Below are positions 14,177 through 43,343 of a stretch of 64,000 nucleotides of DNA, piece by piece; position 1 is the first letter of the stretch; each line of letters begins with the position of its first letter. The DNA is from Deltaproteobacteria bacterium (lineage in GTDB: Bacteria; Desulfobacterota; JADFVX01), in the NCBI GenBank assembly GCA_029860075.1, contig JAOUBX010000011.1:11031-75030 (forward strand), in the 5' to 3' direction. The notes beneath the pieces were generated by a model. The model was not told the origin of the DNA, did no database searches, and saw nothing but the letters and a program-made list of their open reading frames with translations. A program made the translations under genes and the position numbers.

Positions 14177-15389
14177 CGACCTTGCTCCTCATGGCTTCCA
14201 TAATATCAGGAGTAATTACCTGGTAACCTTTGGTTCGCGCATAGCGTTCCAGCCCCTTTTTTACCATCTTGCGTAAAAATATGGGTACTTTTTCGAGACG
14301 TTCCTTTGCTTCCGGCGTCCAGCCAAGTTCTCCCTTATGAGGGAGTGCTATGCCACTTTCGGCCTTGTCCGGTTCATAATCACACCAGGGATCTTCACCC
14401 ATTACATCCCCTGTGGCAGAAAGGGCCCTGGCACGGCAGCCACCGCAAACATCATTGTAGCGGCAATCACCGCATTTTCCATTATATTGAGGGGCCCTCA
14501 TCTGCTTGAATATGGGCGACCTGTCCCAGATTTCCACTAGTGACTCTTTTTTAAGGTTACCACCGGATGTGGTCATATAGGGACATGGTGTCACATCCGC
14601 CTCAGGAGAGATCCTGAAATAACCACTACCGGCAATGCAGCCGCTGGTAGCGCCTTTCATAATGGATGAGTCCGGTGAATTCTGCTGCACTACCCTCAAA
14701 AAATGCGGTGCACAGCGCGCCCTCACCATAGTTTTACCGGCATATTCTTCTTCTGCTTTAGCGAGCCAGGTAAGCATCTTTTCATACTGCGGGGGCGTAA
14801 TGTCCGTCATTTCCTGCCCCCGACCTGTGCAAACAAGAAAAAAGACATTTGCAACTTTGGCCCCTTTTTGAGAGGCAAATTCGATCAATTCGGGGATTTC
14901 ATCATAATTGTTTCGGGTCACGGTAAATTGCAGCTGAAATTCAAGGTCATTTTTTTTCAATAAGTCGATAGCGTCAACCGTCTTTTGCCAACATCCGGGA
15001 CTTCCTCTAAAGTCGTCATGACTTACGGGATTAATAGAATCGAGGCTCAAGCCCACACCCTGAAGACCGGCCAGTTTCATACGAAGAATAACTGCCTCAT
15101 TGAGCAGAGTTCCATTGGTTCCAAGTACGACATTAAGACCCTTATCTGAAGCATACTGTACAATATCAATCAGATCAGGCCTGGCCAGAGGTTCTCCCCC
15201 TGTTAGAATCAGCATGGCGCCGGGACAAAGTTCAGCTATCTCATCGACTATACCAAGAGCCTCAGCGGTCGTTAAATCGCCCTCCCCTCCTTCCAGCTCG
15301 GCAGCATCGAGGTAGCAGTGCTCACATTTCAAATTACAACGCTTGGTCAGGTTCCATGAGATTAAAAAGGGGACTGCGCTTCTGGTCAT
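14163..15389 (-). CDS. Radical SAM/SPASM protein of the AhbC/AhbD/NirJ family with a C-terminal PCP_red-like domain
   Basis: N-terminal ISWNLTKRCNLKCEHCY (CX3CX2C) is typical of AhbD/NirJ haem-modifying radical SAM enzymes. The Cys-rich C-terminal region CGDCRYNDVCGGCRARA is SPASM-like. The last ~50 aa (GWTPEAKERLEKVPIFLRKMVKKGLERYARTKGYQVITPDIMEAM) resemble the BchB C-terminal PCP_red domain. Confidence 0.7.
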   Translation of the reverse strand: MTRSAVPFLISWNLTKRCNLKCEHCYLDAAELEGGEGDLTTAEALGIVDEIAELCPGAMLILTGGEPLARPDLIDIVQYASDKGLNVVLGTNGTLLNEAVILRMKLAGLQGVGLSLDSINPVSHDDFRGSPGCWQKTVDAIDLLKKNDLEFQLQFTVTRNNYDEIPELIEFASQKGAKVANVFFLVCTGRGQEMTDITPPQYEKMLTWLAKAEEEYAGKTMVRARCAPHFLRVVQQNSPDSSIMKGATSGCIAGSGYFRISPEADVTPCPYMTTSGGNLKKESLVEIWDRSPIFKQMRAPQYNGKCGDCRYNDVCGGCRARALSATGDVMGEDPWCDYEPDKAESGIALPHKGELGWTPEAKERLEKVPIFLRKMVKKGLERYARTKGYQVITPDIMEAMRSKVGGRR

Positions 15390-16834
15390 GATAATGTCCT
15401 TTCCGTTGCATGTAGTACAGGGCTTTCCCTTTGACTTTTTTTAAACTTCACATGCTCTGCATCAAATTGACGCCCAATAGTTTCAGCAACCGTCTTTCCC
15501 TGTGAAATACAGGCCCTTACAGAAACACCCTGCAAATAATTACCCGTTACATGGAGTCCGGGAATAAGAGCCAGTTCTTCATCCAGTTTTTTCAGAAACA
15601 TTTGATGCCCCAGGTTATATTGAGGGAGCGCCTTTTTATGGCGAACAACACGAGTCAAAGAGGGGAAACCTTTTACTCCCACAAGCTGGCGTAAATCTTT
15701 AAGGCATCGATCGATGAGTTCCTCATCAGGAAGATCCACCAAATCCTTATTTCTCATCCCCCCCAAATAGGAGGTAAAGAGCACCTCATCACCCTTCGTC
15801 CGTCCCGGAAAAAGGGTTGAAGACCAGAGAGAGCCAAGGCTGGAAAATCCTTTTTCCCTTGCAGGAATCAAACAACCAATACCATCCAGTTTATGTTCTA
15901 CATCTTCTCTTTTGAAAGTGATATAGATTATATTCATTGAGGAATACTCGATACCTTTTAGCATCATGGACAGGTTGACCGATAGTTGATCAACAAGCCC
16001 GGCAGCAATACCGGCAGGAGTGGCCATAACGACGGCATCCCCCTTTATAATTGAGTTCCCGGCAGAACCGGTATGAACATACCATTCTTTACCGACACGC
16101 TCGATTTTTTCAATGGGACAATCGGTAACCAGCTTATCGCCAAGATAATTGCCAAGACCTTTAATGAGACTTTCCATACCGTCTTTAAAGGAAAAGACTT
16201 CAGCGGCACAGGCCGTCCTGATTCCTTTCATCTTCCTTGCAACAACTCCCTTAAGAATACTTCCGTGATCTTGTTCGAGGGCCGCAAATTGTTTAAAAGT
16301 GCTTTTCAGGCAAGCTTTTTCAGCATCACCGGCAAGCGTTCCTGTTACATAGGGTTCAATGGAACGATCAAAAACCTCACGCCCCAGCCGACGGGTAATA
16401 AACTGGGCCACCGTCTCTTCCTGCTCAGGTGCACTTTTAGGAATTAGAGGCTCCACCATGAGCCGCAGCTTTGCCTTTAAACTCCAGAGGTCACTAAAGA
16501 TAAGTTCCCCTATCTTCATGGGAACAACTTTGGGCTTACCATTTTTAACGAGATATCGTCGCTTTGCCGCTTCCTGCCGGGCAATTTTTTCAGGGCCTAA
16601 ACCGAGGGTATTAACCATAAAGTTAACTTCAGGGAGGAAATTAAAAACACAATTGGCCGCATGATCAATTAGAGCGCCACCAACTCTTTCACTCTTGATG
16701 AGCCCCCCGGCTCTGGCATTTCTTTCAAGGACAACAGCATGAAAGCCCTTTTGCTTCAGCCAGAAGGCAGCCGAAAGGCCTGAAATACCTCCACCGATGA
16801 TGATCACTCTTTTTTTGTTAAGATCAACTGCCAT
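15386..16834 (-). CDS. FAD-dependent protoporphyrinogen/coproporphyrinogen oxidase (HemY/CgoX-like)
   Basis: 482 aa, N-terminal VIIIGGGISGLSAAFWL dinucleotide fold, amine-oxidase-like HemY family. Overlaps the downstream radical SAM gene by 4 bp. Confidence 0.75.
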   Translation of the reverse strand: MAVDLNKKRVIIIGGGISGLSAAFWLKQKGFHAVVLERNARAGGLIKSERVGGALIDHAANCVFNFLPEVNFMVNTLGLGPEKIARQEAAKRRYLVKNGKPKVVPMKIGELIFSDLWSLKAKLRLMVEPLIPKSAPEQEETVAQFITRRLGREVFDRSIEPYVTGTLAGDAEKACLKSTFKQFAALEQDHGSILKGVVARKMKGIRTACAAEVFSFKDGMESLIKGLGNYLGDKLVTDCPIEKIERVGKEWYVHTGSAGNSIIKGDAVVMATPAGIAAGLVDQLSVNLSMMLKGIEYSSMNIIYITFKREDVEHKLDGIGCLIPAREKGFSSLGSLWSSTLFPGRTKGDEVLFTSYLGGMRNKDLVDLPDEELIDRCLKDLRQLVGVKGFPSLTRVVRHKKALPQYNLGHQMFLKKLDEELALIPGLHVTGNYLQGVSVRACISQGKTVAETIGRQFDAEHVKFKKSQRESPVLHATERTLS

Positions 16835-16860: not shown

Positions 16861-16962
16861 AGTGCCTAAAGTGAACTAAAGTGAACTAAAGTGCCTGAAA
16901 TGTAATTTCTACTTCTTAAATTTAGGCACTTTAAACTTTAGGCATTTTAGGCACTTTTACCG
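16861..16962. repeat. Palindromic array of AGTGCCTAAAGT-type units
   Basis: Left arm AGTGCCTAAAGTGAACTAAAGTGAACTAAAGTGCCTGAAAT. Right arm AAATTTAGGCACTTTAAACTTTAGGCATTTTAGGCACTTTT. This forms a long imperfect hairpin that overlaps the last codons of the cytochrome gene ending at 16947. Confidence 0.8.
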
Positions 16963-18479
16963 TTCTTCCTCCTGGCAGTGGTAAACCACCAGAACTCGCC
17001 CCCTATAATGACAGCGATCACCAAAAGGGGAATGTAGTAAACATCGGCCCCGGCCGCTGGTTTTAGGAAGAGCCAATACCAGGTTGACATGGTATGTTTG
17101 GAGCCTTTCTCGCTATTGCTGCCATCCCAGGCGGCAAAGGCAATGGGAACAAATCTGCCTGTAGGAATCTGAAGATCAGTCGAACCATCAGCCGTCGTTA
17201 AGGGTCTTTTCATAACAACACGCCATGCCCCCTTTTCATAGTGCGACTTAGCCTCAAGTCCGACTGTTGCGGCATCTCTTTTTTCTATGGCCCCAAAACC
17301 TTTACTATTAAGGAGTTGGATCATCTCGGGCTTTTCCGTAGTGCCACTCTTCCAGTGCCATACATTGACGGGGTTAGAAGCATCGCCCATCCCGAAATAG
17401 GGTTTTTCCATATCACTGGGATCATCGGATATGGCCAGGGGGAGCTGAACCGCCACTCCGTCCTCAAAGAGGTTTTCATCGGCAATATTGGCCGCTACAC
17501 TATCACCGGGAATACTTTTGGTCCTGTCATCCCACTCAAGAAGCATGGAAATTTCCTTATCATTGTAGAATGCCCGGAGTGTAATCGTGTCATTGGATGG
17601 TGTAAAGAAACGATCCTTGGCAATAATTTGAGGAAGCAGATAGAAGGTTGTCGGCTCACTGCTTGCCCATTTTTCATCTGTCGGTGAATGGGGAAGATCC
17701 CCTTCGAGTTTTTCCGCCTTAACTACTGTATTTTCACCTTTAACGACCTTCTCTGTCTTGGCAAGAGAAGCGGCATAATTGGCCACATGCCACCGCTCTT
17801 CGATAGAAAGCTTCTTTTTACTTGCCGGGTCGGCAAAAGAAGGCATCTGCGTGCCATGAATACCCACTGAAATACGGGAATAAATATCCCTGGGGTCATT
17901 GCTGCCCCTGAAAGTCCATGGCTTTGTCAGGTTTCTGGGCCAGGTCCTGAAACCGAGATCATCTTTCAGTTTCTTAATGGCGTTCCCCTTCCCTTCTTCA
18001 CCATGGCATTCGGAGCAGCGGTCAATAAAGAGTTCTTTTCCTTTTTTTATACTATCTTCAGATGATTGAATCTGCTTGCCATAATCAACCTGGTCCGTCG
18101 GTTTTTCCTCTTCATAACCGGCAAAGGTTTTGATATAGGCCACAAGATCCCACATGTCCTGTTCAGAGATAATATCGTCCCAGCCGGGCATTGCCGTTCC
18201 CGGCATACCCTCGGCAATCATTCTATAAATATCTTCATCATTGGGTACGGGATCATCAAAGCCGGTTGTTTTGATCTTGTACATGCCCGAACTAAAGTCC
18301 CTGGGCGGAGGATTGAGCCGTTCAGCGGCAGGACCATCTCCCTCTCCCTCTTCACCATGACACCAGACACAGCGTTTGTTATAGACCTTTGTCCCATTCT
18401 CTACATTGCCCGGTTTGGCTATGGCGTTACAGACCAACAAAGCTGAAATAATTAACGCAATAAGAACATGCTTTTTCAT
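16947..18479 (-). CDS. Dihaem cytochrome c with large C-terminal domain and C-terminal TM anchor (paralogue of 36673..38298)
   Basis: Signal peptide, CVWCH and CSECH motifs, ~300-aa C-terminal domain, terminal hydrophobic helix VYYIPLLVIAVIIGGEFWWF. Confidence 0.8.
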   Translation of the reverse strand: MKKHVLIALIISALLVCNAIAKPGNVENGTKVYNKRCVWCHGEEGEGDGPAAERLNPPPRDFSSGMYKIKTTGFDDPVPNDEDIYRMIAEGMPGTAMPGWDDIISEQDMWDLVAYIKTFAGYEEEKPTDQVDYGKQIQSSEDSIKKGKELFIDRCSECHGEEGKGNAIKKLKDDLGFRTWPRNLTKPWTFRGSNDPRDIYSRISVGIHGTQMPSFADPASKKKLSIEERWHVANYAASLAKTEKVVKGENTVVKAEKLEGDLPHSPTDEKWASSEPTTFYLLPQIIAKDRFFTPSNDTITLRAFYNDKEISMLLEWDDRTKSIPGDSVAANIADENLFEDGVAVQLPLAISDDPSDMEKPYFGMGDASNPVNVWHWKSGTTEKPEMIQLLNSKGFGAIEKRDAATVGLEAKSHYEKGAWRVVMKRPLTTADGSTDLQIPTGRFVPIAFAAWDGSNSEKGSKHTMSTWYWLFLKPAAGADVYYIPLLVIAVIIGGEFWWFTTARRKNGKSA

Positions 18480-18685
18480 AGTTACCGTCCTAAATCATTA
18501 TTGAAGAAAAATTGAAACTACTCATTTAATCCTTACTTCCCCTCTTTAGCAAAGGGGGGCGATGGGGAGATTTGAATAGCTATACCTTACTTAAATCCCC
18601 CTTAATTCCCCTTTACCAAAGGGGGAGAGTCCACATATCTTTCTCAGACTAATCCCATTACAATCTGCGCTTAGTTAATCATTAT

Positions 18686-19456
18686 TTAATGACCCTCTCC
18701 CCATGACCTCGGCGCCTGGCCTGTATAATCATAGAGAAAAAGAATAACCTTCCAAATTTCGTCTTCTGTCAGAAAATCCTCCCAGATGGGCATGGACGAT
18801 ATCCAGGGGGCAGCCTCTTTAGGCAGCCCCGGACCTCCCGTTGCTATTCTCCAAAAAAGAAAAGATTCCTGTAACTGGGCAATGGTCCCTACATCCTGAA
18901 AGTTGATGGGAAGTGGATTGAGTCTCTCCGCATAAGGTCCCCTGCCATCTAGCTTATCTCCATGACAATACTGACAGTTCTGGATATAAACATCTCCACC
19001 TTCCTTGACAAACTCTTTAAACTTTTCGGGATCTTCTTTTTCAAACTTCCTGTAGGGATTTTCAAGGGTCGACAGATCAAAACGCTTTCCAAAGGCTTTT
19101 AAAGTCGATGGTGGCGCAGGATGAATCGTTCTTAGTTCGACGGGGGCTTCAAAACTTGGAAGCATTTTTTGAAAGGTATAGCCTCCTATCAATAAAGGAA
19201 TAAGAGCAAAGACAATATTTCGAACCATCTTTTGTGAAGGGTCCTCAACGAGCGCCTTGATCGGTGCGGCAAGCTCCCTGGTACTCTCTTCCGTCGCCGT
19301 ATAGACCATTAGAACGCCTACGATAACGAAGAACATATACATGGTAAGCAGGCTTGATGGTATGAGCTGGCCAAGAATGACACCAAATATAATCTTGAAT
19401 GCGGCGTATATTCCTACAACAACTAAGACGGCCTGTAATAACTTGGGTATTTTCAT
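18686..19456 (-). CDS. Membrane-anchored monohaem cytochrome c (paralogue of 38380..39369)
   Basis: Two N-terminal TM helices and a single CQYCH motif. Clear similarity to 38380..39369 (shared GGPGLP and PINF motifs). Confidence 0.8.
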   Translation of the reverse strand: MKIPKLLQAVLVVVGIYAAFKIIFGVILGQLIPSSLLTMYMFFVIVGVLMVYTATEESTRELAAPIKALVEDPSQKMVRNIVFALIPLLIGGYTFQKMLPSFEAPVELRTIHPAPPSTLKAFGKRFDLSTLENPYRKFEKEDPEKFKEFVKEGGDVYIQNCQYCHGDKLDGRGPYAERLNPLPINFQDVGTIAQLQESFLFWRIATGGPGLPKEAAPWISSMPIWEDFLTEDEIWKVILFLYDYTGQAPRSWGEGH

Positions 19457-19470
19457 TTCTTAAGCTCTCC

Positions 19471-20280
19471 TTATTTCTGACTTGCCATATACTTAACGAG
19501 AATCTCCAACTCACTTGCAGCCATCTGCTCACCGAGGTCCGGCGGCATCATATCAGGCTCAAAGCCCTTTGCTATGTCGGCATTGGGATCAAGTATGGCC
19601 CTTCTCAGATAATTACTATCAACACTGGCACCTATTTTAGTCAGGTCCGGAGCGATGTCCCCAAGGTGACCTGCAATTTTATGGCACATGCCGCAGCCAA
19701 ATTTTTCAACAATCTCTTCCGGTGTTTTTAAGGCAACACGTACAGTCTCTTCCTCCCCTTCTTCCTCTGCAGGTGCATCAGTGGGGATCTCTACCGTTAC
19801 ATCGACACCGGCCGAATCCTGTAAGTAGGCAATAACGGCTTTTACCTCAGCATCTGAAAGTCCGATGCTCCCTGATGAAACATCGGGCATGGGACTAACC
19901 GTATCATTCGTCCCGGCCTTACCGAATCCGGCTACCACAAAGGCGGAGGGTTTAATGAGAGATTCCATAACATAGGCTTCCGAACTCTTTGCCTCCCCTT
20001 TGTAGCGGGCATCCTTCATCCGCTCTTCAGCAATGGCGGCAACCTTATTTATCATTGGCGCCCGCCCCAGTTCATTATGACAAAGCGTACAGGTTCCCTT
20101 TCCTTTATATATCTTTTCACCAAGTGCAATGAAGGTGTCCATCGTCATGGCACCCAGATCGAGTTTTTCCTCCACCGGCGGCGGAGCAGGCTTGACGTTG
20201 GGAATTCCATAGTTGGCATAGAGCGAAAAAGCTTCTATAGCCAAGACACTGAAGATCACTACCTTTAAAAAAGTCTTCAT
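19471..20280 (-). CDS. Dihaem class-I cytochrome c (paralogue of 39397..40371)
   Basis: Signal peptide, CTLCH and CGMCH motifs. Shares SLIKPSAFVVAGF / EVKAVIAYLQ blocks with the paralogue. Confidence 0.8.
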   Translation of the reverse strand: MKTFLKVVIFSVLAIEAFSLYANYGIPNVKPAPPPVEEKLDLGAMTMDTFIALGEKIYKGKGTCTLCHNELGRAPMINKVAAIAEERMKDARYKGEAKSSEAYVMESLIKPSAFVVAGFGKAGTNDTVSPMPDVSSGSIGLSDAEVKAVIAYLQDSAGVDVTVEIPTDAPAEEEGEEETVRVALKTPEEIVEKFGCGMCHKIAGHLGDIAPDLTKIGASVDSNYLRRAILDPNADIAKGFEPDMMPPDLGEQMAASELEILVKYMASQK

Positions 20281-20304
20281 CTAAATACTCCTTACTTGAA
20301 CGGC

Positions 20305-22161
20305 TCAGGTCGTGGCCGTTTTCTTCGTGCTTATCTGGGCAAGCCAGAAGATAAATATAACGAGGGCCATAAAGATGAGCGCCCCCGTCGAAACCACGTT
20401 AGCCGCATAACCGAGGGTCGGCGTAAATGCATCGGGAGAGGCATCTCTCATAATGTCCTTCACATGCCAATGCTGCCTGATTCCGGAGCGAATGTATCCC
20501 ATAAGGCCCATAAGCCAGGTAAAGGAAACGGCCAAAAGAAAAAGGGCATACTGCGACCGGTCCGGCACCTTTCCCCAGTTAAGAGGCGCCACTTCCTTTG
20601 CCCCCTTATACATAAAGGTGTCGATAACAGTGCATAAGACAATGATCACCAGCGTCGTACAGACCTGTGGAATGGAGGCTGCCACTTTGTAAACGGTATT
20701 GGTAAAGTAACCGTAATAAACACCAAGGATGAGAATATTGATGATACCCGCTGTAAAGATGGCCGACTGAGCGGCATTACCCGCCTTTTCCCAGCTTACA
20801 ACAGCCACTTTATTGCACCGCCGGTAAAGCATGAAGCTTAAGAAGGTAAAGGAGATCATAATATTTACAGCTGTATTCTTGGCAGGCATAATACCGAGAG
20901 GCCCGAGGTATTTATTGTAGGGACCACCCAGCGATTTAAGTTCTGCATTTGTCAGGATAAGTGTATGAGGTGTAAACCAGACCAAAAATGCACCGATGAC
21001 TGCAATGGCAATATACTTGATATACCTGGTATATCTGACAGCGCCTTCACTTCTCCCCATACAGCACCAGAGATAATAGTTTGCAGAGAGAAAAAGAGCC
21101 CCAATGAGGACGGCCTGAATAATAAAGAGCCAGGCAAAAACACCTCCCATGAGAGTAATTCCCATCTGTTGGCTATAGGCATAAATCTCGGCTGTCAGAT
21201 AATAGCCTGCAAAGGGCAATGGAAGCAGTGCCGATATGGCGATGAAGTTGGCATTATAGCCCATCCAGTCATAATGTGCTCTTTCCTCGGCCTTTGTTGC
21301 ACAGAGGAATTTATAGGCCGCATAGGCGCCGACAATGGAACCGCCATAGGCAACGTTGGCAATCACCCTGTGCAGGTTGATGGGATTCCATAAAAAATTA
21401 TGAATCACATCCCATTCGGAACCGAGGAATGCCCCCTTAATATCGACACCTGCCGGACTCATCATAAAGGTGACCCAGGCATTGGCCAGGAGCATCAAAG
21501 TGGTACCGACGGCATTAAGCATAAGCCCTATGGTGAGATGAACCCATTTTCTAAAACCTCCCTGCAGCCACTGCCAGCCATAATAATAGATGTAAAGGCA
21601 GGCGGATTCGGCAAAGAAGAGGAAAGCATAGGCCAGCATGGTCTTGCTAAATATGGATGAAAGATATTTAAAGAAATCAGGATAAAAAACGAGAAGTCCG
21701 AAAGCAGTAAGCCCGCCCAGGATAGCTGTTATGGAATAAGCCGTGAGACTAACCTTAATGAACTCATAGGCCATATCATCAAATTTTTTGTCCTTTGTCG
21801 CCATGCCGATAGATTCAATGATGAAGACAAAGATGGGAACGGCAAGAACAAAGGCGGCAAACCATAAGTGAAGCTGGGCGGCAAGCCAGACAAAGACCCT
21901 GCCGTTAATTCCGGGAATTTGCGGATAATCATCCGCTGTCAGTACCGGCGCCGGGGGATAAACTTTCGCAGCAACCGCTTCTTCACCGGCAGCGGGTTCG
22001 GCAGGAGGAGCCGCCTCTTCCTGCGAACTTGCAAGAGCCTCTGCAATACCGGAAAGTGATCTGTCAAAAGCGCCTAAATCGACTATCTGCACCAGGGCAG
22101 ATGCAATGAGAAGAAATAACAGTAACGCTCTCCACTTCTTAATAAAAGAAAGCAAGCTCAT
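20305..22161 (-). CDS. Cytochrome bd superfamily (CydA-like) membrane protein, CydB-less, copy 1
   Basis: 618 aa polytopic. N-terminal AAQLHLWFAAFVLAVPIFVFIIESIG aligns with the CydA His19/Glu helix-1 motif. NAWVTFMMSPAG aligns with the CydA NGWMQNP region. C-terminal GYIRSGIRQHWHV aligns with the CydA GWxxAExGRQPW motif. No cydB follows. Confidence 0.8.
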   Translation of the reverse strand: MSLLSFIKKWRALLLFLLIASALVQIVDLGAFDRSLSGIAEALASSQEEAAPPAEPAAGEEAVAAKVYPPAPVLTADDYPQIPGINGRVFVWLAAQLHLWFAAFVLAVPIFVFIIESIGMATKDKKFDDMAYEFIKVSLTAYSITAILGGLTAFGLLVFYPDFFKYLSSIFSKTMLAYAFLFFAESACLYIYYYGWQWLQGGFRKWVHLTIGLMLNAVGTTLMLLANAWVTFMMSPAGVDIKGAFLGSEWDVIHNFLWNPINLHRVIANVAYGGSIVGAYAAYKFLCATKAEERAHYDWMGYNANFIAISALLPLPFAGYYLTAEIYAYSQQMGITLMGGVFAWLFIIQAVLIGALFLSANYYLWCCMGRSEGAVRYTRYIKYIAIAVIGAFLVWFTPHTLILTNAELKSLGGPYNKYLGPLGIMPAKNTAVNIMISFTFLSFMLYRRCNKVAVVSWEKAGNAAQSAIFTAGIINILILGVYYGYFTNTVYKVAASIPQVCTTLVIIVLCTVIDTFMYKGAKEVAPLNWGKVPDRSQYALFLLAVSFTWLMGLMGYIRSGIRQHWHVKDIMRDASPDAFTPTLGYAANVVSTGALIFMALVIFIFWLAQISTKKTATT

Positions 22162-22182
22162 TTTAACTCCTTAGTGTATTAT

Positions 22183-22299
22183 TTAGTGATGAAAAAAGAG
22201 AGAGAGCCCCTGCGCTTTCATCAAACCAAAATCAAGGGCAAAGTAAATAACTGCTGATACGGCCAGAGAAACGATAAATGGGCCCATAAATGACTTCAT
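22183..22299 (-). CDS. Single-TM small peptide (38 aa), possible CydX-like accessory subunit
   Basis: MKSFMGPFIVSLAVSAVIYFALDFGLMKAQGLSLFFHH with GAGGAGG SD 5 nt upstream. Located 21 bp upstream of the cydA-like gene. Absent from the 60-aa-cutoff ORF track. Confidence 0.45.
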   Translation of the reverse strand: MKSFMGPFIVSLAVSAVIYFALDFGLMKAQGLSLFFHH

Positions 22300-22319
22300 A
22301 ATGCCTCCTCAATATATAA

Positions 22320-22409
22320 TCATAAAAACCAGATAAAAAATGCTGTAATGGCAATAAGCACGACAATAAACAGAGCCGGCCCTGCCAATCCTGCTTTTTC
22401 TGAACTCAT
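22320..22409 (-). CDS. Single-TM small peptide (29 aa), hypothetical
   Basis: MSSEKAGLAGPALFIVVLIAITAFFIWFL, lying between the sigma-54 promoter and the cydA-like gene. Confidence 0.35.
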   Translation of the reverse strand: MSSEKAGLAGPALFIVVLIAITAFFIWFL

Positions 22410-22595
22410 AAAGAACCTCGTATCATTATGTTTTTACCGCAGAGGACGCAGAGGATGCTGAGATTTAAATTCAATTGATGAAACGATCACATTATCAGGG
22501 GAATTACCATTCCTTTGCTGCCATCTCTGTGATCCCCACGTACTCTGCGGCTTTTGACCTGTTTATGCTTCCGACCCTTTCAGGTGTGGACAAAT

Positions 22596-22612
22596 TTGCA
22601 ACTGCCATGCCA
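22596..22612 (-). promoter_or_regulatory. Sigma-54 (-24/-12) promoter driving the cydA-like operon 1
   Basis: The minus strand reads TGGCAT-GGCAG-TTGCA, matching the TGGCAC-N5-TTGCW consensus. It sits about 190 bp upstream of the first small ORF. Confidence 0.7.
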
Positions 22613-22699
22613 TTCGTCTAAACCCGCTAAAAGTCGACAATCAAGGCGAGTTTTGCTAATAGGGCATCTTTTTTTCGGATAAAAAGCGAACAGTAAAGT

Positions 22700-22726
22700 G
22701 GTAACATTCTTACCAGTAAAAAGTGT
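22700..22726. promoter_or_regulatory. Candidate enhancer-binding-protein site (dyad GGTAA-N5-TTACCAGT)
   Basis: GGTAACATTCTTACCAGTAAAAAG lies about 100 bp upstream of the sigma-54 -24 element. The same dyad with the same spacing sits upstream of the second sigma-54 promoter at 53716. Confidence 0.6.
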
Positions 22727-23009
22727 AGTTAGAGTGGTAAAGTATTTTAAAATCCGGCAAGAATATAGTATCTTTAAGGTCTACAGCAAGACAGGCACAT
22801 AAAGAGACAAGTTGGTACTTTTTTTGCTCACGAAATGAAGGTATAAAAGATTTAAAAGGAGAATATGAATGATTAAAAAAGAACACCTGCCCAATATTGT
22901 TATCATGTCCGGCCTGGTAGTAAATGTTATCGTCATTGTGGCAATCCTCTACTTCTACCTCTAGGACTCATTCAAAGTGATAAACAACATGAAAGGGACA
23001 TGATCGAGG

Positions 23010-23639
23010 ATGCCTGAAAAAAAAACGTGCTTTTTAAATATAAGTCTCATTATCTTGGCACTAAGCTTCAGTTTAACGCTTTTACCTTTTTCCCATTTAA
23101 GAGCGAGTGAATCTCATGCAGAGGAAAATGTTTCACCTGAAATGCCCCCCGGTGGCAATTTCACACTAAACTCTGCCGACGGAGCAATATCCTTAAACAG
23201 ATATAAAGGCAAGGTAGTCGCCCTCCTCTTCGGCTACACAGAGTGCCCTGAGATTTGTCCCGGCTTCCTGACGGTAATGTCCAGGGCCTTTGCAGGGCTC
23301 AGCGAAGATGACGTTAAAAAGGTAAGGGGCTTTTTTATCAGCTTCGATCCGCAGCGGGACTCTCTTGAAAAACTCAAGGAATATTCGGCATACTTTCACC
23401 CAAATATAGCAGGCCTCAGCGGTTCAGTAGAAGAAGTTGAAAAGGTAGCGGAGCAATATGGTGCGCTTTACTATAAAATTGAGAAAGGCGGATCGCCCGG
23501 AGACTATCACTTTCTTCACTCAGCCAACATCTACCTCATAAGCCCGGAAGGCAAACTGGAATATATATTCAATGAAAACTCACCACCATCGGAAGTGACG
23601 GCAGCTATCCGGAGTCTGCTCGAAAAAGGGAAATTGTAA
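23010..23639 (+). CDS. SCO1/SenC family copper chaperone
   Basis: 209 aa thioredoxin-like protein with CPEIC (CxxxC) plus a downstream His. N-terminal membrane anchor. Confidence 0.8.
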   Translation: MPEKKTCFLNISLIILALSFSLTLLPFSHLRASESHAEENVSPEMPPGGNFTLNSADGAISLNRYKGKVVALLFGYTECPEICPGFLTVMSRAFAGLSEDDVKKVRGFFISFDPQRDSLEKLKEYSAYFHPNIAGLSGSVEEVEKVAEQYGALYYKIEKGGSPGDYHFLHSANIYLISPEGKLEYIFNENSPPSEVTAAIRSLLEKGKL

Positions 23640-23644
23640 TCTCT

Positions 23645-24094
23645 ATGATACGCATAATAATTATAACGGTCCTTCTTTCCCTTGCAGCCTGCACATCCAA
23701 AATGGCAATCCCTGCGCCTGAAGAGGCCTCCCTAATCAAGGTATCCAATCCATACATCCTGGAGCTTCCGCCTGTTTCAAAAAACAGCGCTGCATACATG
23801 GAGTTGCTAAACAAAGGCAACAGGGATGTATCTCTCATCGCAGTTTCAAGCCCTGCATCGGCTTCAGCCTCATTTCATGACCATATCCACAAAAATGGTC
23901 TCATGATGATGGAAAAACTCGACAAAGTAGCAATAAATAGCGGTGAGTCACTAAACTTCAAAGTCGGCAGCCTCCATATCATGCTGGCAGGGCTCAAAGA
24001 AAGCCTCTACAAAGGTGACATTGTTCCCCTGACATTTACCTTCAGCGACAGCAGTACACTTACAATCAATATTCCGGTACGAAAACGACAATAG
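23645..24094 (+). CDS. Periplasmic copper chaperone PCu(A)C (DUF461)
   Basis: 149 aa, lipoprotein-like signal (LAAC). His/Met-rich HDHIHKNGLMMMEK copper-binding motif. Confidence 0.75.
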   Translation: MIRIIIITVLLSLAACTSKMAIPAPEEASLIKVSNPYILELPPVSKNSAAYMELLNKGNRDVSLIAVSSPASASASFHDHIHKNGLMMMEKLDKVAINSGESLNFKVGSLHIMLAGLKESLYKGDIVPLTFTFSDSSTLTINIPVRKRQ

Positions 24095-24238
24095 CGGGCT
24101 AAGAAGTACGCCTTCAATGTAATACATCAATAATCCCACCGCAAGCAGAGAGGAATGCACCCGCCAGGGATTCTTATGCCTGATTTCTTGTTGAGAAAAT
24201 AATTGATAATTCTATCAAGTTGAAGTAACATGTAACCC

Positions 24239-24475
24239 ATGAAATTTGAAATAAGTGAAGAAACACGACAAAAAACGACAAAGTGTAAGAAAGATTTTTC
24301 ATGCCTGTCAGGTTTAGGAAAAGATATCTGCCAAGTTGATCATTTCCATGTTAAAGTAATTTGCTATATCAAATGTTCATCTACCGAAAATTGCAATTAT
24401 AGAACTGCCTTGTATGAAAGACCTATTTGTGCATGTCCCACAAGGCGAGAACTTCATGACAGGTATAATATATAA
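24239..24475 (+). CDS. Small Cys-rich hypothetical protein
   Basis: 78 aa with 9 Cys. No recognised family. Lies between the copper chaperones and the CcoQ-like gene. Confidence 0.3.
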   Translation: MKFEISEETRQKTTKCKKDFSCLSGLGKDICQVDHFHVKVICYIKCSSTENCNYRTALYERPICACPTRRELHDRYNI

Positions 24476-24681
24476 AGCAGCCTTATTATAGCTCTAAGCG
24501 CTCTTTCCTGCACTGATCAACACAACCCTTATCCTAAAAGCAGCAGTAAGCTTATTATTAATATCCCCATATAAAGACGTCACTAGCGCCCTTCTCCTAT
24601 TGAGTTAAACGTTTTCCAGCCACATCTCCTATCTCCGGCAACCGGGCATGATAGTCGAATTCATGGAAGGCGGGAATTTCC

Positions 24682-24882
24682 ATGAATAAAATTTTTGAAT
24701 CAAAGTGGGAGGCTATGACTCTAAACGATTGGATCGGGCTTGCTGTAACGGCAGTTATATTTATCTTCATGATAGTTGCTTACATCTATGTACTTAAACC
24801 AAATAACCGCGAAAAACTGGAAGCCCGCAGAAATATCATAATGAAGGAAGATTCCTCAGACAAGGATGGTGCAGATGACTGA
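24682..24882 (+). CDS. CcoQ/FixQ-like single-TM small subunit
   Basis: 66 aa, one TM helix (IGLAVTAVIFIFMIVAYIYVL). Overlaps the start of the CcoP-like gene, as in ccoQP. Confidence 0.5.
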   Translation: MNKIFESKWEAMTLNDWIGLAVTAVIFIFMIVAYIYVLKPNNREKLEARRNIIMKEDSSDKDGADD

Positions 24883-25741
24883 TAAACACGACCCCTACAA
24901 AGCAAAAGATACGGGGCATGTATGGGATGATGACATAAGAGAGCTTGATAACCCCCCACCCAGATGGTGGATATTGGGGATTCACCTTAGCTGGATCAGC
25001 ATACTTGTATACTGCATCCTTTATCCAAGCATACCCTTAATTAACGACTCAACCAAAGGCATCCTTGGATGGACGCAGATTAAAGAATTTAAATCAAAGG
25101 TGGCTGAGGTGGAGGCCATCAGAAAACCTTATAATGATAAGATAGCGGCAATGACGGCGGAAGAAGTATTAAAAGATGCAGAACTCCTCAACTTTGCTCA
25201 AATTTCATCCAGGGTCGTCTTTGGAGACTTTTGCGCCCCCTGCCACGGAGCGGGCGGACAAGGAGGGAAAAACTACCCTGTCCTCGCCGATGACGATTGG
25301 CTTTACGGCGGTTCACTGGAAGCAATAACGAAGAGTATTACTAACGGTAGAATAGGTGATATGCCGGGTCACAGTGAAATGCTGACGGAGCAGGAAATCA
25401 ACGATGTTGTCAAATACGTAGCAGGCCTCTCTACAGGACAAGTACACGAAGCGGGCAAGGCCGTCTACATGGGGAAGTCGGAAAATCGTGAGGCCAGGTG
25501 CTACACATGTCATGGCAGGGACGGTAAAGGAAAACAGAGCAAAGGCGCACCAGACCTGACCGATGCCATCTGGCGCTTTGACGGCAGCGAAGCAGGTATC
25601 AAACATACCATCGTACATGGAGTCAATTACGGAGGACCTCCAACAAGAAAGGCAAAAATGCCCGCCTTCAATAGAAAGCTGAGCGAAATTCAGATTAAAA
25701 AGCTTGCCCTTATGGTCTACCAATTCAGCGGTGGACAATAG
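24866..25741 (+). CDS. CcoP/FixP-like membrane-anchored dihaem cytochrome c (orphan, no ccoNO adjacent)
   Basis: N-terminal GHVWDDDIRELDNPPPRWW signature of cbb3 subunit III, a TM helix, then two haem motifs CAPCH and CYTCH. Confidence 0.75.
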   Translation: MVQMTDKHDPYKAKDTGHVWDDDIRELDNPPPRWWILGIHLSWISILVYCILYPSIPLINDSTKGILGWTQIKEFKSKVAEVEAIRKPYNDKIAAMTAEEVLKDAELLNFAQISSRVVFGDFCAPCHGAGGQGGKNYPVLADDDWLYGGSLEAITKSITNGRIGDMPGHSEMLTEQEINDVVKYVAGLSTGQVHEAGKAVYMGKSENREARCYTCHGRDGKGKQSKGAPDLTDAIWRFDGSEAGIKHTIVHGVNYGGPPTRKAKMPAFNRKLSEIQIKKLALMVYQFSGGQ

Positions 25742-25901
25742 TTAACAGTCATATATTTTTTAGGTCGGGATTTAAGTCCGGGATATCGGTTAAAGAAGGC
25801 AATCTAACAGGAATATGTGTGCTGATCCATAAACTTACCTTAATAGCAAAGGGCCTTTCCCTTGCATATACTTCAATCCATGCTACTATCATAATAGAGC
25901 A

Positions 25902-26282
25902 TTGAAAATCTTCCCAACCTCAGAGGGGGAAAAAGTGGATGAAAAGCTGAAGGAAAATATTAAAAGTCAAAGCACATGGATGAGGGGACTTTATATGCTC
26001 CTCTTTGCATTGATCTACAGTATAGCTGAAATAGTCGTCCTATTTATTGCGGTTTTCCAGTTTGTACTGACCCTGTTTACAGGTAAAGTAAATGAACGTC
26101 TTCTTAATTTCAGCGGGAGTCTGAGTACATTCATTTACCAGACAATGTTGTTTTTCATGTTTAACAGCGAAGAAAAACCTTACCCTTTCTCACCCTGGCC
26201 CAAAGGCGCACCTAAAACTTATAAGAGTTCAACTTCAAAAGAAAAAAGGAAGCCAAAAAGTATTAAGGAGGAAGATCAATAA
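25902..26282 (+). CDS. Hypothetical membrane protein (DUF4389-like)
   Basis: 126 aa, two hydrophobic helices, Lys-rich C-terminus. Confidence 0.4.
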   Translation: MKIFPTSEGEKVDEKLKENIKSQSTWMRGLYMLLFALIYSIAEIVVLFIAVFQFVLTLFTGKVNERLLNFSGSLSTFIYQTMLFFMFNSEEKPYPFSPWPKGAPKTYKSSTSKEKRKPKSIKEEDQ

Positions 26283-26519
26283 AGGAGGCTTTCCTATAGT
26301 CTCTTTATTAGCTATTTCAACATTTCTTCCTGAAGTCATCAAAAATACACTCTCTAGGAGCCTATGGGAAGTCGATTTAAAATTTACATCACTTTGAATC
26401 TATATTTGAATAATTTGTTGAAATTTCATATTAAAAGAATACTTTATTTAGCGCGTAGAAAAGATAATAAGATGAAGAGATGATGCAGTTTATCTAATGT
26501 ATGATTTATAGGTTCTGCA

Positions 26520-26816
26520 ATGGCTACAAGTGAAGGAGAGTATAACCCTAAAAGGCAGCATGTTCGAATAAAGGAAAAAAAGAAATGTATCTTGAGAGTC
26601 GCCTCTCTCAATTCAGAGGGGAGTGAGGCTATTTTTGTCGAAACATTAGATCACTCTAAAGGCGGGCTGGGCATTATTTACGATGGTGAAAAACTCTCAA
26701 TCGGTAATAGGTTTTTCGTATATATTGATACCTTGAATATTTCCAGCAAAGCGGCGGAGATTGTATGGTTGAGGCAGCTTAACGGAAATTATACAGCTGG
26801 ACTTCGGTGGCTATGA
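26520..26816 (+). CDS. PilZ domain protein (c-di-GMP receptor)
   Basis: 98 aa with RQHVR (RxxxR) and DHSKGGLG (DxSxGG) motifs. Confidence 0.65.
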   Translation: MATSEGEYNPKRQHVRIKEKKKCILRVASLNSEGSEAIFVETLDHSKGGLGIIYDGEKLSIGNRFFVYIDTLNISSKAAEIVWLRQLNGNYTAGLRWL

Positions 26817-26945
26817 GTCTGTCGGACTTAGGGTAAATCTAGTGCGAAAAAGAAGCTTTCCAGGTGGAAGCTTATCTTGAGGATTCACCACTTTTTTCCT
26901 GCATTGGGAATGCGCCTTTCTTAAAAGTCTTTTGAAAATAAGCAC

Positions 26946-26992
26946 AGAAACCTTGGTCAATAAAAAAATAGGGGCCCGGCCAAATCGGCCAG
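26946..26992 (-). terminator. Rho-independent terminator of the cytochrome c gene 27021..27344
   Basis: GC-rich hairpin GGGCCCGGCC...GGCCAGGCCC, followed on the minus strand by a run of seven T. Confidence 0.6.
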
Positions 26993-27020
26993 GCCCTGTA
27001 GGAGGGGGGGGTGAAAAATT

Positions 27021-27344
27021 TTAAAGTGTTTTCAGATACTCAACTACCGCCTTAACCTGATCGTCGTTTAGAAACCTGTTAGGCATTTTTGCCCTGGCCG
27101 TTACGGCTTTCGGATTTTTGATCCAGGTGAAGAGACCTTCTTCATCAAGCTTGTCCACATAAATTCCGCTTCGGCCGTAAACACCTTTCAGGCCAGGACC
27201 TACCTTCTTTTTCTCAGTCTTGTTGTGACAAGACATGCATTTTCTTTTAAAAATGTGCTCACCGTCTACCTTTTTTGCAAGAGCAGTACCTGCACTGGTT
27301 GATACAATAGCTGCAACGGCAATAGATGCTATAACTCTGGTCAT
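27021..27344 (-). CDS. Periplasmic monohaem class-I cytochrome c
   Basis: 107 aa, signal peptide, CMSCH. Confidence 0.8.
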   Translation of the reverse strand: MTRVIASIAVAAIVSTSAGTALAKKVDGEHIFKRKCMSCHNKTEKKKVGPGLKGVYGRSGIYVDKLDEEGLFTWIKNPKAVTARAKMPNRFLNDDQVKAVVEYLKTL

Positions 27345-28360: not shown

Positions 28361-28384
28361 CAGCCTGTAGTAGTTCTAACTTTA

Positions 28385-28524
28385 TTTTCAATTTGGAAAG
28401 GAGGGATTTTTTGCAAGGTCAAGGAAATCAAGGGTTTCGCCGAGTCGTACTACTGTACGTCGCACAAGCAAATCTGAAAATTGACGCAGAGATTGCGAAA
28501 AGCACCCTTTCCGGATGAAAACTA
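28385..28524 (+). repeat. 140-bp dispersed repeat, copy A (candidate small RNA)
   Basis: About 93 percent identical to 35698..35839. Begins TTTTCAATTTGGAAAGGAGGG. Contains a hairpin CGTAC-TAC-TGTACG that shows a compensatory change in copy B. Confidence 0.7.
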
Positions 28525-28525
28525 A

Positions 28526-28720
28526 TTAGACTTCACATTTCTTGCATGTAGAAATCCCAAAAATCGTATAAAGTGGGCAATTCCCTACAAGACCCGTCAA
28601 GAGCGGAACTAGTCCCACCAGTCCCCAGAGCGTCTTTGGACCAACAACGACAAGGGATAGCAGAACAAGCCCGGCAACTACACGGATGACTCTCTCAGTA
28701 CTATTTTCATTGATTTTCAT
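28526..28720 (-). CDS. DUF2892/YgaP-like small membrane protein
   Basis: 64 aa, two TM helices, conserved GxVGxCP-like motif. Family commonly partnered with rhodaneses. Confidence 0.6.
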   Translation of the reverse strand: MKINENSTERVIRVVAGLVLLSLVVVGPKTLWGLVGLVPLLTGLVGNCPLYTIFGISTCKKCEV

Positions 28721-33806: not shown

Positions 33807-34328
33807 CTACTCCATGAGGCTCTGGAAGTGAGCACCCAAATCTTTGGGGAGAGCGGCATCCCTGTAACGTACTTTTCCACTCCGATCAACGATAATGATG
33901 GTCGGTGTCCCCATAACGTTGAAAGACTTTGTAATTTTGCTCCCCTCATCAAAAGCAAGAGGATAATCCATACCGTATTTTTTACTGTATCGCTTCATCT
34001 TTTTTTCGGAATCATTGATACCCACGTTGATGGCCAGAAATTCCATTCCTTTTGGATTAAAGGTGGAATAGAACTCTTTAAGTTTAGGTATCTCCTCCTT
34101 ACATACGGGACACCATGTGGCCCAAAATATCAGGAAAAGGGGTGCTTTTCCTTTTTTATCATCCACCTTAAAGAGATTCCCCTTCATCGTTTTTATTTCA
34201 AATGACGGGGCCATATCTTCTACTGTGACAGCAAAAACCCTGACGGAAAAAAGAAAGAGAAAGACGATAGTAATTAAAGCTATCAGTTCAAAGCGGATAT
34301 TTAAGTTCAATTTAAATTCATTCTTCAT
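33807..34328 (-). CDS. TlpA/ResA-like periplasmic thiol:disulfide oxidoreductase
   Basis: 173 aa, membrane anchor, thioredoxin fold with WCPVC active site. Confidence 0.8.
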   Translation of the reverse strand: MKNEFKLNLNIRFELIALITIVFLFLFSVRVFAVTVEDMAPSFEIKTMKGNLFKVDDKKGKAPLFLIFWATWCPVCKEEIPKLKEFYSTFNPKGMEFLAINVGINDSEKKMKRYSKKYGMDYPLAFDEGSKITKSFNVMGTPTIIIVDRSGKVRYRDAALPKDLGAHFQSLME

Positions 34329-35026
34329 AGCAGCAACTCTCCCATTTTAATAAGGAAGTACTCTCCCAGGCCGATCATAAGAAAACCTATCCCCTTTTTG
34401 ACTTTTACCATCCACTCTCCCGACCTTGGAAGCGCAGCAACAAGACCTGAAAAGGTCCCTACCAGGACCAGCAGCACGCCCATGCCTAATGAAAAAACAA
34501 AGAGCAGGCTCCATCCAAGGAGGATATTACCTGTGGAGGCAACGTAGGCCAGCATAACCCCGAGTACGGGGGCCGTACAGGGCGCTGCCACGAAACCTGA
34601 AGCCATCCCTATAATTATAGCACCTCCAATTCCTCCACGTTCCGATGAAGCGGACTTGGGAACAAATGAAGGTATGGTAAAAACGTCAAGCATGCTCAAT
34701 CCCAGCAGTATTATAATATTGGCCACAATGAGGTAAGCATAGGGATTGGTACTTACCTGCCCGAAAAAACGCCCCGTTGCAGCAGCAAAGACACCGAGAA
34801 AGGAGTATGTGAGCGCCACACCGAGCACATAAGAGAGGGAAAGAATAAAGCCCCTCACCTTTGAACCTCCCAGGTTCCTTGAGCCTACATATCCTGCCGT
34901 AATAGGAATCATGGGATATACACAAGGTGTAAAGCTTGTCAAAAGGCCACCTAAAAAAGCTGCGATAAAAGACATAAGTATGGAGGCCTGCAGATAGGCC
35001 TCCATACCGTTTATAAGTTCAGTCAC
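34325..35026 (-). CDS. ccdA: Cytochrome c biogenesis thiol-reductant transporter CcdA (DsbD beta-domain)
   Basis: 233 aa, six TM helices, the two conserved Cys (TPCVYP and APCTAP). Confidence 0.85.
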   Translation of the reverse strand: MTELINGMEAYLQASILMSFIAAFLGGLLTSFTPCVYPMIPITAGYVGSRNLGGSKVRGFILSLSYVLGVALTYSFLGVFAAATGRFFGQVSTNPYAYLIVANIIILLGLSMLDVFTIPSFVPKSASSERGGIGGAIIIGMASGFVAAPCTAPVLGVMLAYVASTGNILLGWSLLFVFSLGMGVLLVLVGTFSGLVAALPRSGEWMVKVKKGIGFLMIGLGEYFLIKMGELLL

Positions 35027-35839: not shown

Positions 35840-35903
35840 TTTATGATTTTCCGGCCAGATAGAGCCAATAGAAACAAGAACAGAGCAATTTTTCAGCATA
35901 TTT

Positions 35904-39369: not shown

Positions 39370-39396
39370 TTATATCTCCCTTATCGTATCAATTCT

Positions 39397-43331: not shown

Positions 43332-43343
43332 CTTTTCTCCTCA

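Follow-up and report, generated by a model that had tools for sequence, protein, structure and literature searches.

The subject of this study is a plus-strand block of four genes at positions 23010-25741, analysed with its neighbours inside a 64-kb window (the whole stretch of DNA examined, from a 'Deltaproteobacteria' metagenome-assembled genome (MAG)). The block encodes the copper chaperones SCO1 and PCuA_C, followed by copies of CcoQ and CcoP, two subunits of cbb3 oxidases, and is transcribed divergently from an operon encoding a CydA-like protein (hereafter the bd-like protein) and several cytochromes c. I read the block, with moderate confidence, as two units lying side by side, a copper-chaperone cassette and a spare pair of cbb3 subunit genes. 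The spare pair, ccoQ2-ccoP2, is a lineage-specific duplicate of two cbb3 subunit genes and is under purifying selection. The bd-like operon is the known OR-N2 module, which is functionally uncharacterised. Orphan cbb3 subunits and the OR-N2 module were known before; the orphan ccoQ-ccoP pair and the association of SCO1 with OR-N2 genes appear to be new.

Identification of the four genes

A comparison set of 80 genome loci with bd-like proteins 72-82% identical to that of the window, from Alpha-, Gamma-, Zeta- and 'Delta'-proteobacterial and Magnetococcales MAGs, was assembled and then searched with the window proteins. All four genes of the block were identified by family models or homology, with the names and positions that the preliminary description had given them (Table 1). 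SCO1 combines a SCO domain with the copper ligands C79-x3-C83 (C79PEIC83) and a conserved distal His170, and its public annotation is 'SCO family protein' (MDH3973683-like). The CPEIC motif and the histidine align with those of all 11 SCO1 proteins found at other OR-N2 loci. PCuA_C has a lipoprotein-like N-terminus and the strict motif H78-x10-M89-x21-H111-x-M113 (H111-I-M113) of its family, and is 44% identical to the PCuA_C that follows SCO1 at one other OR-N2 locus (L008). The 66-residue product of ccoQ2 gave a sub-threshold score with the Pfam FixQ model (19.2 bits against a cutoff of 29). It was assigned to CcoQ all the same, because it is 53-55% identical to the small open reading frame (ORF) between ccoO and ccoP in three canonical operons (L005, L088 and L090). 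It is a small single-helix protein, its gene overlaps the start of ccoP2 as ccoQ does in canonical operons, it is 65% identical to the other orphan copy (L002), and as a query it picks up CcoQ in 31 metagenomic ccoNOQP loci.

CcoP2 passes the NCBIfam ccoP equivalog TIGR00782 (245.6 bits against a cutoff of 179.95, residues 13-291). It contains the FixP_N domain (PF14715, E=1e-15) and two PF13442 stretches with the haem-binding motifs CAPCH at 123 and CYTCH at 212; the public record (MDH3973686.1) has its start at 24875. The context feature of CcoP, co-encoded ccoN and ccoO, is absent from the 64-kb window. No CcoN homologue was found anywhere in it by tblastn with the CcoN of a relative, the sole tblastn match to CcoO was limited to a haem motif (36 residues) of an unrelated cytochrome c, and no cox protein is encoded there, in agreement with the preliminary description. 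The Cys-rich ORF in the gap between PCuA_C and ccoQ2 is not called in the public contig, has no Pfam or NCBIfam match and lacks homologues among the fetched loci. It could be a spurious ORF or the gene of a small metal-binding protein.

ccoQ2-ccoP2 is a retained duplicate of two cbb3 subunit genes

CcoP2 is 76% identical to P0002, which is encoded by another orphan ccoQ-ccoP pair, and 63-68% identical to the CcoP proteins of three canonical operons (P0003, P0008 and P0010; context Rrf2-ccoN-ccoO-ccoQ-ccoP(-ccoG-ccoH-ccoI)); the range for canonical operons of relatives is 63-69%. Among the matches listed, identity to CcoP of Gammaproteobacteria and Nitrospinota is 52-57%. In a neighbour-joining tree, CcoP2 and P0002 form a clade nested among the canonical CcoP proteins of the lineage. 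The FixP_N region of CcoP contacts CcoN, and over this N-terminal FixP_N/transmembrane region the two orphans are 87% identical to each other and 68-69% identical to the canonical copies. Comparison of the two orphan genes gave a nonsynonymous divergence (dN) of 0.15 and a synonymous divergence (dS) of 1.9, hence a dN/dS ratio of about 0.08. Because of this ratio and of the position in the tree, ccoQ2-ccoP2 is taken to be a functional, lineage-specific duplicate of the two genes that end the canonical ccoNOQP operon.

Another way to account for the lack of ccoN and ccoO, and for the 588-bp gap without a confirmed gene before ccoQ2, is that the pair is a functionless, decaying remnant of a disrupted cco operon. 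However, both reading frames are intact, both CxxCH motifs are present, and the orphan arrangement with its downstream PilZ gene is conserved in two diverged genomes. Since a dN/dS of about 0.08 is maintained over a dS of about 1.9 relative to the orthologous orphan of another genome, the pseudogene or remnant explanation was rejected as scarcely credible.

A complete Rrf2-ccoN-ccoO-ccoQ-ccoP-ccoG-ccoH-ccoI operon very probably lies on another contig of the same MAG. The accession of its CcoP (P0010, MDH3974295.1) is 609 numbers from that of CcoP2, both contigs were found in run SRR7134660, their GC contents are 45.8% and 45.0%, and their tetranucleotide frequencies correlate with r=0.94. A second assembly, ERZ27251186, likewise carries one orphan (P0002) and one canonical (P0008) copy. 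A shared repetitive extragenic palindromic (REP)-like element linking the canonical cco contig to the window was looked for and none was found. CcoQ2 and CcoP2 would most likely join the CcoN and CcoO of the canonical operon in an alternative cbb3 isoform that differs in its electron-entry subunit.

The preliminary description had instead proposed a CcoP-like cytochrome as the electron donor of the bd-like protein. In such a chimeric oxidase, CcoP2 and CcoQ2 would be electron-entry subunits of the bd-like protein in place of CydB, which is indeed missing from the operon, and SCO1 and PCuA_C would load a CuB-like site. The genes are adjacent, divergent and possibly co-regulated, and ccoN and ccoO are absent from 64 kb, all of which would fit. 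By contrast, ccoP, ccoQ, ccoN and ccoO occur in 0/80 of the other bd-like loci, and all 33 metagenomic relatives of CcoP2 (44-54% identical) lie in ccoN-ccoO-ccoQ-ccoP-ccoG operons wherever flanks exist, so the donor role finds no comparative support. The only other orphan ccoQP locus (L002-L004) has no bd-like gene in the 10 kb available, and three c-type cytochrome proteins, membrane-anchored or soluble and conserved in 76-80 of 80 loci, are already encoded in the bd-like operon itself. CcoP2 and CcoQ2 are recent paralogues of canonical cbb3 subunits, CcoP2 retains the FixP_N region typical of a CcoN-bound CcoP, and a complete canonical cco operon, detected in the same sequencing run, could supply the partner subunits. 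The chimeric oxidase is therefore very improbable, and the donor role of CcoP was abandoned in favour of assembly into a cbb3 isoform.

SCO1, PCuA_C and the bd-like gene are also absent from all 33 metagenomic CcoP loci, and the metagenome scan with CcoP returned canonical operons only, without further orphan ccoQP loci. The orphan pair encoding P0002 has, like ccoQ2-ccoP2, a downstream PilZ-domain gene, in that case fused to a receiver domain (L002:3084-3791). A PilZ gene after both orphan ccoQP loci hints at a cyclic di-GMP link to alternative cbb3 subunits. The PilZ-receiver gene of L002 lies near GGDEF genes. Upstream of the orphan pairs, the 588-bp gap showed no significant nucleotide similarity to the region preceding the L002 ccoQ, and the 185-residue protein encoded upstream of the latter has no relative in the window. 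A search for FNR/Anr boxes (TTGAT-N4-ATCAA) gave none in 22100-27100, and over the whole window they are no more frequent than expected by chance.

A probable promoter region common to the SCO1 unit and the bd-like operon

The other unit, sC31-SCO1-PCuA_C, is a commonplace pair of genes for periplasmic Cu(I) chaperones, appended to a small divergent OR-N2 gene, sC31. Of 77 informative loci, 66 have an sC31 homologue in the kilobase or so upstream of the bd-like gene, divergent in 47 and co-oriented in 19, and the copy at the locus of the closest relative (L087, bd-like protein 93% identical) is 74% identical to that of the window.

Transcription of the unit probably starts at a sigma-54-type promoter, and an enhancer-like palindrome is common to this promoter and the bd-like operon. 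Scoring against TGGCAC-N5-TTGC revealed one sigma-54-like element on each strand of the divergent intergenic region (Table 1). The four genes do diverge from the bd-like operon, as stated earlier, and the sigma-54-like element of that operon, on the minus strand, is conserved in L087. The plus-strand element lies about 40 nt upstream of sC31-SCO1, and its counterpart in L087 is TGGTACCTTTTTTGCT. The L087 intergenic region is only 77% identical overall, yet both elements and the palindrome between them are conserved. This palindrome is a candidate binding site for an enhancer-binding protein. Tandem members of the palindrome family, TGGTAA-N5-TTACCA, are found at two further places. Those at 53692-53731 precede a third sigma-54-like site (53614-53628, minus strand), which heads an operon encoding a porin, the arsenite oxidase Aio and a second OR-N2 module (module B), and those at 59687-59736 precede a Usp/PCP_red gene. 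Ten matches were counted in the window against 2.5 expected, and none of 100 shuffles reached ten. The genes at 53866-57594 specify an NtrC-type activator and a sensor kinase. Judged from sequence, the palindromes, the sigma-54-like promoters and the activator look like a dedicated sigma-54 regulon, and since the palindrome and the sigma-54-like layout are shared, it is reasonable to infer that the SCO1 unit is co-regulated with the bd-like operons. The only matches of an Rfam scan of the whole window were two tRNAs, and the intergenic regions discussed here gave none.

Copper genes recur at OR-N2 loci

SCO1 is present at 11/80 of the other OR-N2 loci, always with the CxxxC motif and the His ligand, and is invariably co-oriented with cluster genes and directly adjoining them. 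It lies between sA29 and sB38, the two small-peptide genes that head the bd-like operon (L012, L014), after a gene for an 83-residue protein (L043, L057), after a gene for an amine-oxidase-like protein (L032, L034, L049, L051, L055, L071), or just upstream of the cluster as a SCO1-PCuA_C-TlpA-like series, the last gene encoding a CxxC protein (L008). These differing positions, at least four in number, argue for several independent recruitments. The OR-N2 loci contain 11 SCO1 genes in 1.31 Mb, compared with none in 0.40 Mb of cco loci; counted by locus, 11/80 versus 0/40 gives a Fisher p=0.015, a value uncorrected for shared ancestry. PCuA_C was found at 2/81 OR-N2 loci.

Two close relatives of the window's organism have further genes of this kind at the equivalent place. 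In L087, sC31 is followed by a DUF420 gene (L087:2-418, minus strand), at which the contig ends; the DUF420 family includes CtaM, an assembly factor of haem-copper oxidases. In L007 (bd-like protein 81% identical), sC31 is followed by a gene for a 581-residue NosZ of the clade III, lactonase type (L-NosZ; 55-1800, minus strand), which passes the equivalog NF052460 (707 bits against a cutoff of 700) and has the CuA-type motif C-x3-C-x3-H-x2-M. Homologues of L-NosZ, 59-65% identical, occur within 10 kb of the bd-like module (module A) at 8/81 OR-N2 loci. The loci concerned are L007, L009, L031, L050, L063, L066, L085 and L086, and in some (e.g. L007, L050) the gene is divergent from the module. 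Since L-NosZ neighbours the module, the bd-like module may be its electron-transfer partner.

SCO1 and PCuA_C are classical assembly factors of CuA centres, and one explanation is that they mainly serve another cuproenzyme, for instance the CuA centre of a clade III nitrous oxide reductase. The L-NosZ gene that extends the sC31 unit in L007 and the eight loci with L-NosZ point in this direction. No L-NosZ, cox or other CuA protein is encoded in the 64-kb window, however, and no locus has SCO1 and L-NosZ together within 10 kb, which makes such a client improbable here.

A second explanation would have SCO1, together with PCuA_C, mature the OR-N2 complex itself by inserting copper into the bd-like protein or a cytochrome partner. 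It draws on the intact SCO1 genes at 11/80 loci, in at least four positions and in Alpha-, Gamma- and 'Delta'-proteobacterial MAGs, and on their absence from the cco loci (with the reservation about ancestry just made). It draws also on the fact that the SCO1 unit begins with sC31 and has a palindrome and sigma-54 layout in common with the bd-like promoter. Within the bd-like proteins themselves, seven histidines are invariant or nearly so in the A and B families (H98, H208, H264, H296, H399, H416 and H566), and the A family adds H564. Three of them, H98, H208 and H264, are positions tabulated for OR-N2 by Murali et al. 2021. H296, H399 and H566 (plus H564 in the A type) are not accounted for by the known haem positions of bd oxidases; H399 and the H564-W-H566 motif would face the periplasm in an approximate topology drawn from hydropathy. 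According to PMC6606698, Lucker et al. 2010 moreover put forward a copper site for a bd-like paralogue of Nitrospira.

Several observations weigh on the other side. SCO1 is missing within 10 kb from 85% of the OR-N2 loci, PCuA_C is present at just two of 81, and a copper site has so far been demonstrated in no OR-N protein. At position 416 the window protein has Asn, where 97% of A-type proteins have His. An AlphaFold2 model from a 20-sequence alignment (mean predicted local distance difference test score (pLDDT) 54.9, predicted template-modelling score (pTM) 0.49) was too poor to inspect. Finally, a search with the SCO1 protein gave 12 matches, the nearest of which belong to stand-alone SCO1-PCuA_C cassettes in housekeeping contexts, so that the pair is in itself a general-purpose cassette. 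A role in OR-N2 maturation is on balance unlikely, though it keeps some weight. The bolder proposal that the OR-N2 complex is copper-dependent, SCO1 (with PCuA_C and a TlpA-like reductase in some genomes) loading a H399/H564-W-H566 site or a partner subunit, is best called a long shot.

A cbb3 oxidase as probable client of the chaperones

The explanation retained is the one stated at the outset, a chaperone cassette beside a spare cbb3 subunit pair. SCO1 and PCuA_C would most likely feed the CuB centre of the cbb3 oxidase to which CcoQ2 and CcoP2 are assigned, by a SenC/PccA route, and may also serve other periplasmic cuproproteins; the cbb3 oxidase is most likely their client in that it is the most economical one. 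A SenC/PccA/CcoI route delivers copper to cbb3 (Andrei et al. 2021, PMC8475189). The canonical operon (P0010) includes ccoG, ccoH and ccoI, the last encoding a Cu-exporting ATPase, and has neither SCO1 nor PCuA_C within 10 kb. The preliminary description would have assigned the four genes to a canonical oxidase had its operon lacked SCO, PCuAC and CcoP alike; the operon lacks the two chaperones over that distance but has a CcoP of its own.

Six points weigh against this explanation. The known orphan cbb3 clusters are ccoN-ccoQ, not ccoQ-ccoP. Expression of ccoQ2-ccoP2 and assembly of the products with CcoN are predictions, and the canonical operon belongs to the same genome with high probability rather than with certainty. 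Since SCO1 accompanies 11 other OR-N2 clusters and 0/40 cco loci, the client could be the bd-like system, alone or as well. The shared palindrome and sigma-54 architecture tie the SCO1 unit to the bd-like regulon. Lastly, no terminator is predicted in the 588-bp gap between PCuA_C and ccoQ2, so ccoQ2-ccoP2 could share the sC31-SCO1 promoter. Of the link between the copper and CcoP genes and the bd-like operon suggested in the preliminary description, the copper-chaperone half has thus gained ground, through the distribution of SCO1, sC31 and the promoter architecture, while the CcoP half is not supported. The recurrent operon-embedded SCO1 and the shared promoter architecture make a copper requirement of the bd-like system a minority possibility.

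The OR-N2 module and its supercluster

The likeness of the 618-residue bd-like protein to CydA is limited to the first four helices (PF01654 matches residues 90-320, and CydA from the PDB aligns with residues 84-323). About 14 hydrophobic segments are predicted, there is no Q-loop, and the operon encodes cytochromes c and an EbdC homologue, all features of OR-N2. An operon with multiple cytochromes c and an EbdC homologue was described for OR-N2 (Murali, Gennis & Hemp 2021, supplement), and the same cluster is known from Nitrospira, Nitrospina and anammox bacteria as 'bd-like oxidase + two cytochromes c + alternative NxrC' (Lucker et al. 2013, PMC3578206; Mundinger et al. 2019, PMC6606698).

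Three small single-helix peptide genes, unannotated in the window, precede the module: sA29 and sB38, which are always co-oriented with the bd-like gene and just upstream of it, and sC31. Their conservation spans several classes of proteobacteria. Like CydX, the encoded peptides may serve as small subunits, here of the OR-N2 complex. In some Gammaproteobacteria (e.g. L020, L042), the 29-residue peptide is fused to a cytochrome c domain.

Clustering of all ORFs of the fetched loci gave the order of a supercluster: HEAT protein, beta-sandwich protein or small cytochrome c, module B, 225-residue cytochrome c, small cytochrome c, [three small peptides], module A, 83-residue protein, Usp/PCP_red protein, radical-SAM/SPASM protein and amine-oxidase-like flavoprotein. 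The small cytochrome c gene lies less than about 0.5 kb from sC31 in most genomes versus about 7.7 kb in the window. The 7.7-kb interval, an insertion point of accessory genes, is made of two convergent blocks, one with genes for FKBP, an extracytoplasmic function (ECF) sigma/anti-sigma pair, YgaP, a rhodanese and a cytochrome c, the other running from sC31 through SCO1, PCuA_C, ccoQ2 and ccoP2 to the DUF4389 and PilZ genes.

Module B (36673-42615), a paralogue whose bd-like protein is 46% identical, is preceded by genes for a cytochrome c, a HEAT-repeat protein and the arsenite oxidase AioBA, both subunits of which pass their NCBIfam equivalogs. This suggests that the bd-like module accepts electrons from arsenite oxidation. 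The bd-like module is paired with AioA or HEAT in many loci. The operon at 36673-49002 (minus strand) also carries genes for two MauG/CCP-like dihaem peroxidases, a beta-sandwich protein and a porin.

Between 36 and 47 of 80 loci, according to protein and method, encode radical-SAM/SPASM, amine-oxidase-like and Usp/PCP_red proteins downstream of module A, and these might synthesise or alter a cofactor of the complex, perhaps a haem. In the window, they are encoded at 14163-16834 and 57673-59472 (both minus strand): a radical-SAM/SPASM protein with a PCP_red domain, an amine-oxidase/HemY-like flavoprotein and a Usp protein with repeated PCP_red domains.

Three other observations concern the surroundings. 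The interval between the two OR-N2 modules encodes, at 33807-35026 (minus strand), a TlpA/ResA-like thioredoxin and a CcdA (DsbD_TM) protein; in Bradyrhizobium, ScoI is reduced by TlpA. Upstream of the rhodanese gene and of a 158-codon ORF beside Rrf2 lie two copies of an intergenic element of some 165 nt (28365-28528 and 35678-35843), 83-95% identical and without an Rfam match. A gene at 51422-52201 (minus strand), of a cluster found at 22 loci ('X11'), encodes a conserved periplasmic carboxypeptidase-regulatory-like beta-sandwich protein whose C-E-A-H-N-F-M motif, with His residues upstream, loosely resembles a type-1 copper site. Cupredoxin-like proteins have been reported from the NXR (nitrite oxidoreductase)/bd-like clusters of Nitrospina (PMC3578206).

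Table 1. Coordinates of the genes and promoter elements discussed, in window positions
Feature	Position	Strand	Basis or remark
OR-N2 module A, four genes	16947-22161	-	Pfam; order conserved in 76-80/80 loci
Dihaem c + EbdC/NxrC-like haem b protein	16947-18479	-	
Cytochrome c	18686-19456	-	
Dihaem cytochrome c	19471-20280	-	
bd-like (CydA-like) protein, 618 aa	20305-22161	-	
sB38, single-helix peptide gene, 38 aa	22183-22299	-	conserved in 75/78 loci
sA29, single-helix peptide gene, 29 aa	22320-22409	-	conserved in 73/78 loci
Sigma-54-like promoter of operon A (sA29-sB38-bd-like), TGGCATGGCAGTTGC	22598-22612	-	one mismatch; conserved in L087
Palindrome TGGTAACATTCTTACCA between the two divergent sigma-54-like promoters	22699-22715		conserved in L087
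Sigma-54-like -24/-12 element, TGGTACTTTTTTTGC (22813-22827); TGGTACTTTTTTTGCT (22813-22828)	22813-22827; 22813-22828	+	one mismatch
sC31, single-helix peptide gene, 31 aa	22869-22964	+	first gene of the SCO1 unit; ends 45 bp before SCO1
SCO1/SenC periplasmic copper chaperone, 209 aa	23010-23639	+	PF02630, E=2e-34, 118.8 bits (cutoff 22.8)
PCuA_C (PccA/PcuC-type) periplasmic Cu(I) chaperone	23645-24094	+	PF04314, E=2e-29, 101.8 bits (cutoff 29.4)
Unverified Cys-rich ORF, 78 aa	24239-24475	+	mechanical ORF only, in the 588-bp PCuA_C-ccoQ gap
ccoQ2, orphan CcoQ copy, 66 aa	24682-24882	+	homology to CcoQ of canonical operons
ccoP2, orphan dihaem cbb3 subunit III	24866-25741	+	FixP_N and two cytochrome c domains
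DUF4389 membrane protein, downstream of ccoP2	25902-26282 (public call starts 25980)	+	PF14333, E=2e-27
PilZ-domain protein, last gene of the plus-strand block	26520-26816	+	PF07238, E=2e-6

Implications

If the two-unit explanation holds, the diversification of cbb3 through orphan subunits reaches beyond Pseudomonas, and extends to the electron-entry subunit CcoP. The absence of ccoN and ccoO from a single window then also cautions against deducing new enzyme architectures from adjacency. A central role in the energy conservation of nitrite oxidisers and anammox bacteria has been attributed to the OR-N2 module, which is not known to have been characterised biochemically. Its bd-like protein is 72-82% identical across many proteobacterial MAGs, it comes with three conserved small peptides, and it repeatedly draws copper-related genes (SCO1, PCuA_C, clade III NosZ, DUF420). 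Copper dependence of OR-N2 is in this respect a concrete hypothesis, and the genomes with an operon-embedded SCO1 are the place to look. Were it true, OR-N2 would add a third kind to the terminal oxidases or reductases that use haem plus copper, one that evolved independently, and its copper dependence would explain both why SCO1 was recruited into OR-N2 operons at least four times and why it shares an enhancer and a sigma-54 promoter region with the bd-like operon here.

Comparison with known systems

In Pseudomonas aeruginosa, orphan cbb3 subunits form hybrid isoforms (Jo et al. 2017, PMC5697931). As with ccoN3Q3 and ccoN4Q4 of that organism, ccoQ2-ccoP2 is a partial cco cluster away from a complete ccoNOQP operon and retained under selection, and mixing with the subunits of the complete operon into isoforms is to be expected. 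The P. aeruginosa orphans are, however, ccoN-ccoQ pairs that supply the catalytic subunit, whereas the pair described here is ccoQ-ccoP, supplies the electron-entry subunit and comes from the MAG of an uncultured 'Deltaproteobacteria' member, and its hybrid assembly is what I infer from the genes.

The chaperones belong to the same two families as SenC/PccA of Rhodobacter capsulatus and ScoI/PcuC of Bradyrhizobium (PMC8475189) and have all the copper-ligand motifs, and, as in the R. capsulatus relay, a plausible client exists in the form of a cbb3 operon with ccoGHI. They differ from that relay in that the chaperone genes adjoin each other and a spare ccoQP, in the sigma-54-type promoter inside a bd-like supercluster, and in that the client is a putative one.

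With the OR-N2 module as described (Murali 2021; PMC3578206; PMC6606698), the operon shares a CydA-like protein of about 14 helices without Q-loop, the retained N-terminal haem positions H98, E185, H208 and H264, and the cytochromes c and EbdC/NxrC-like haem b protein that follow. The duplication of the module, the link to AioAB, the small peptides and SCO1 are not described in those three sources. The module of the window is thus set apart by being duplicated and by its linkage to arsenite oxidase AioAB instead of NXR; three conserved small peptides precede it, and SCO1 accompanies 15% of the loci.

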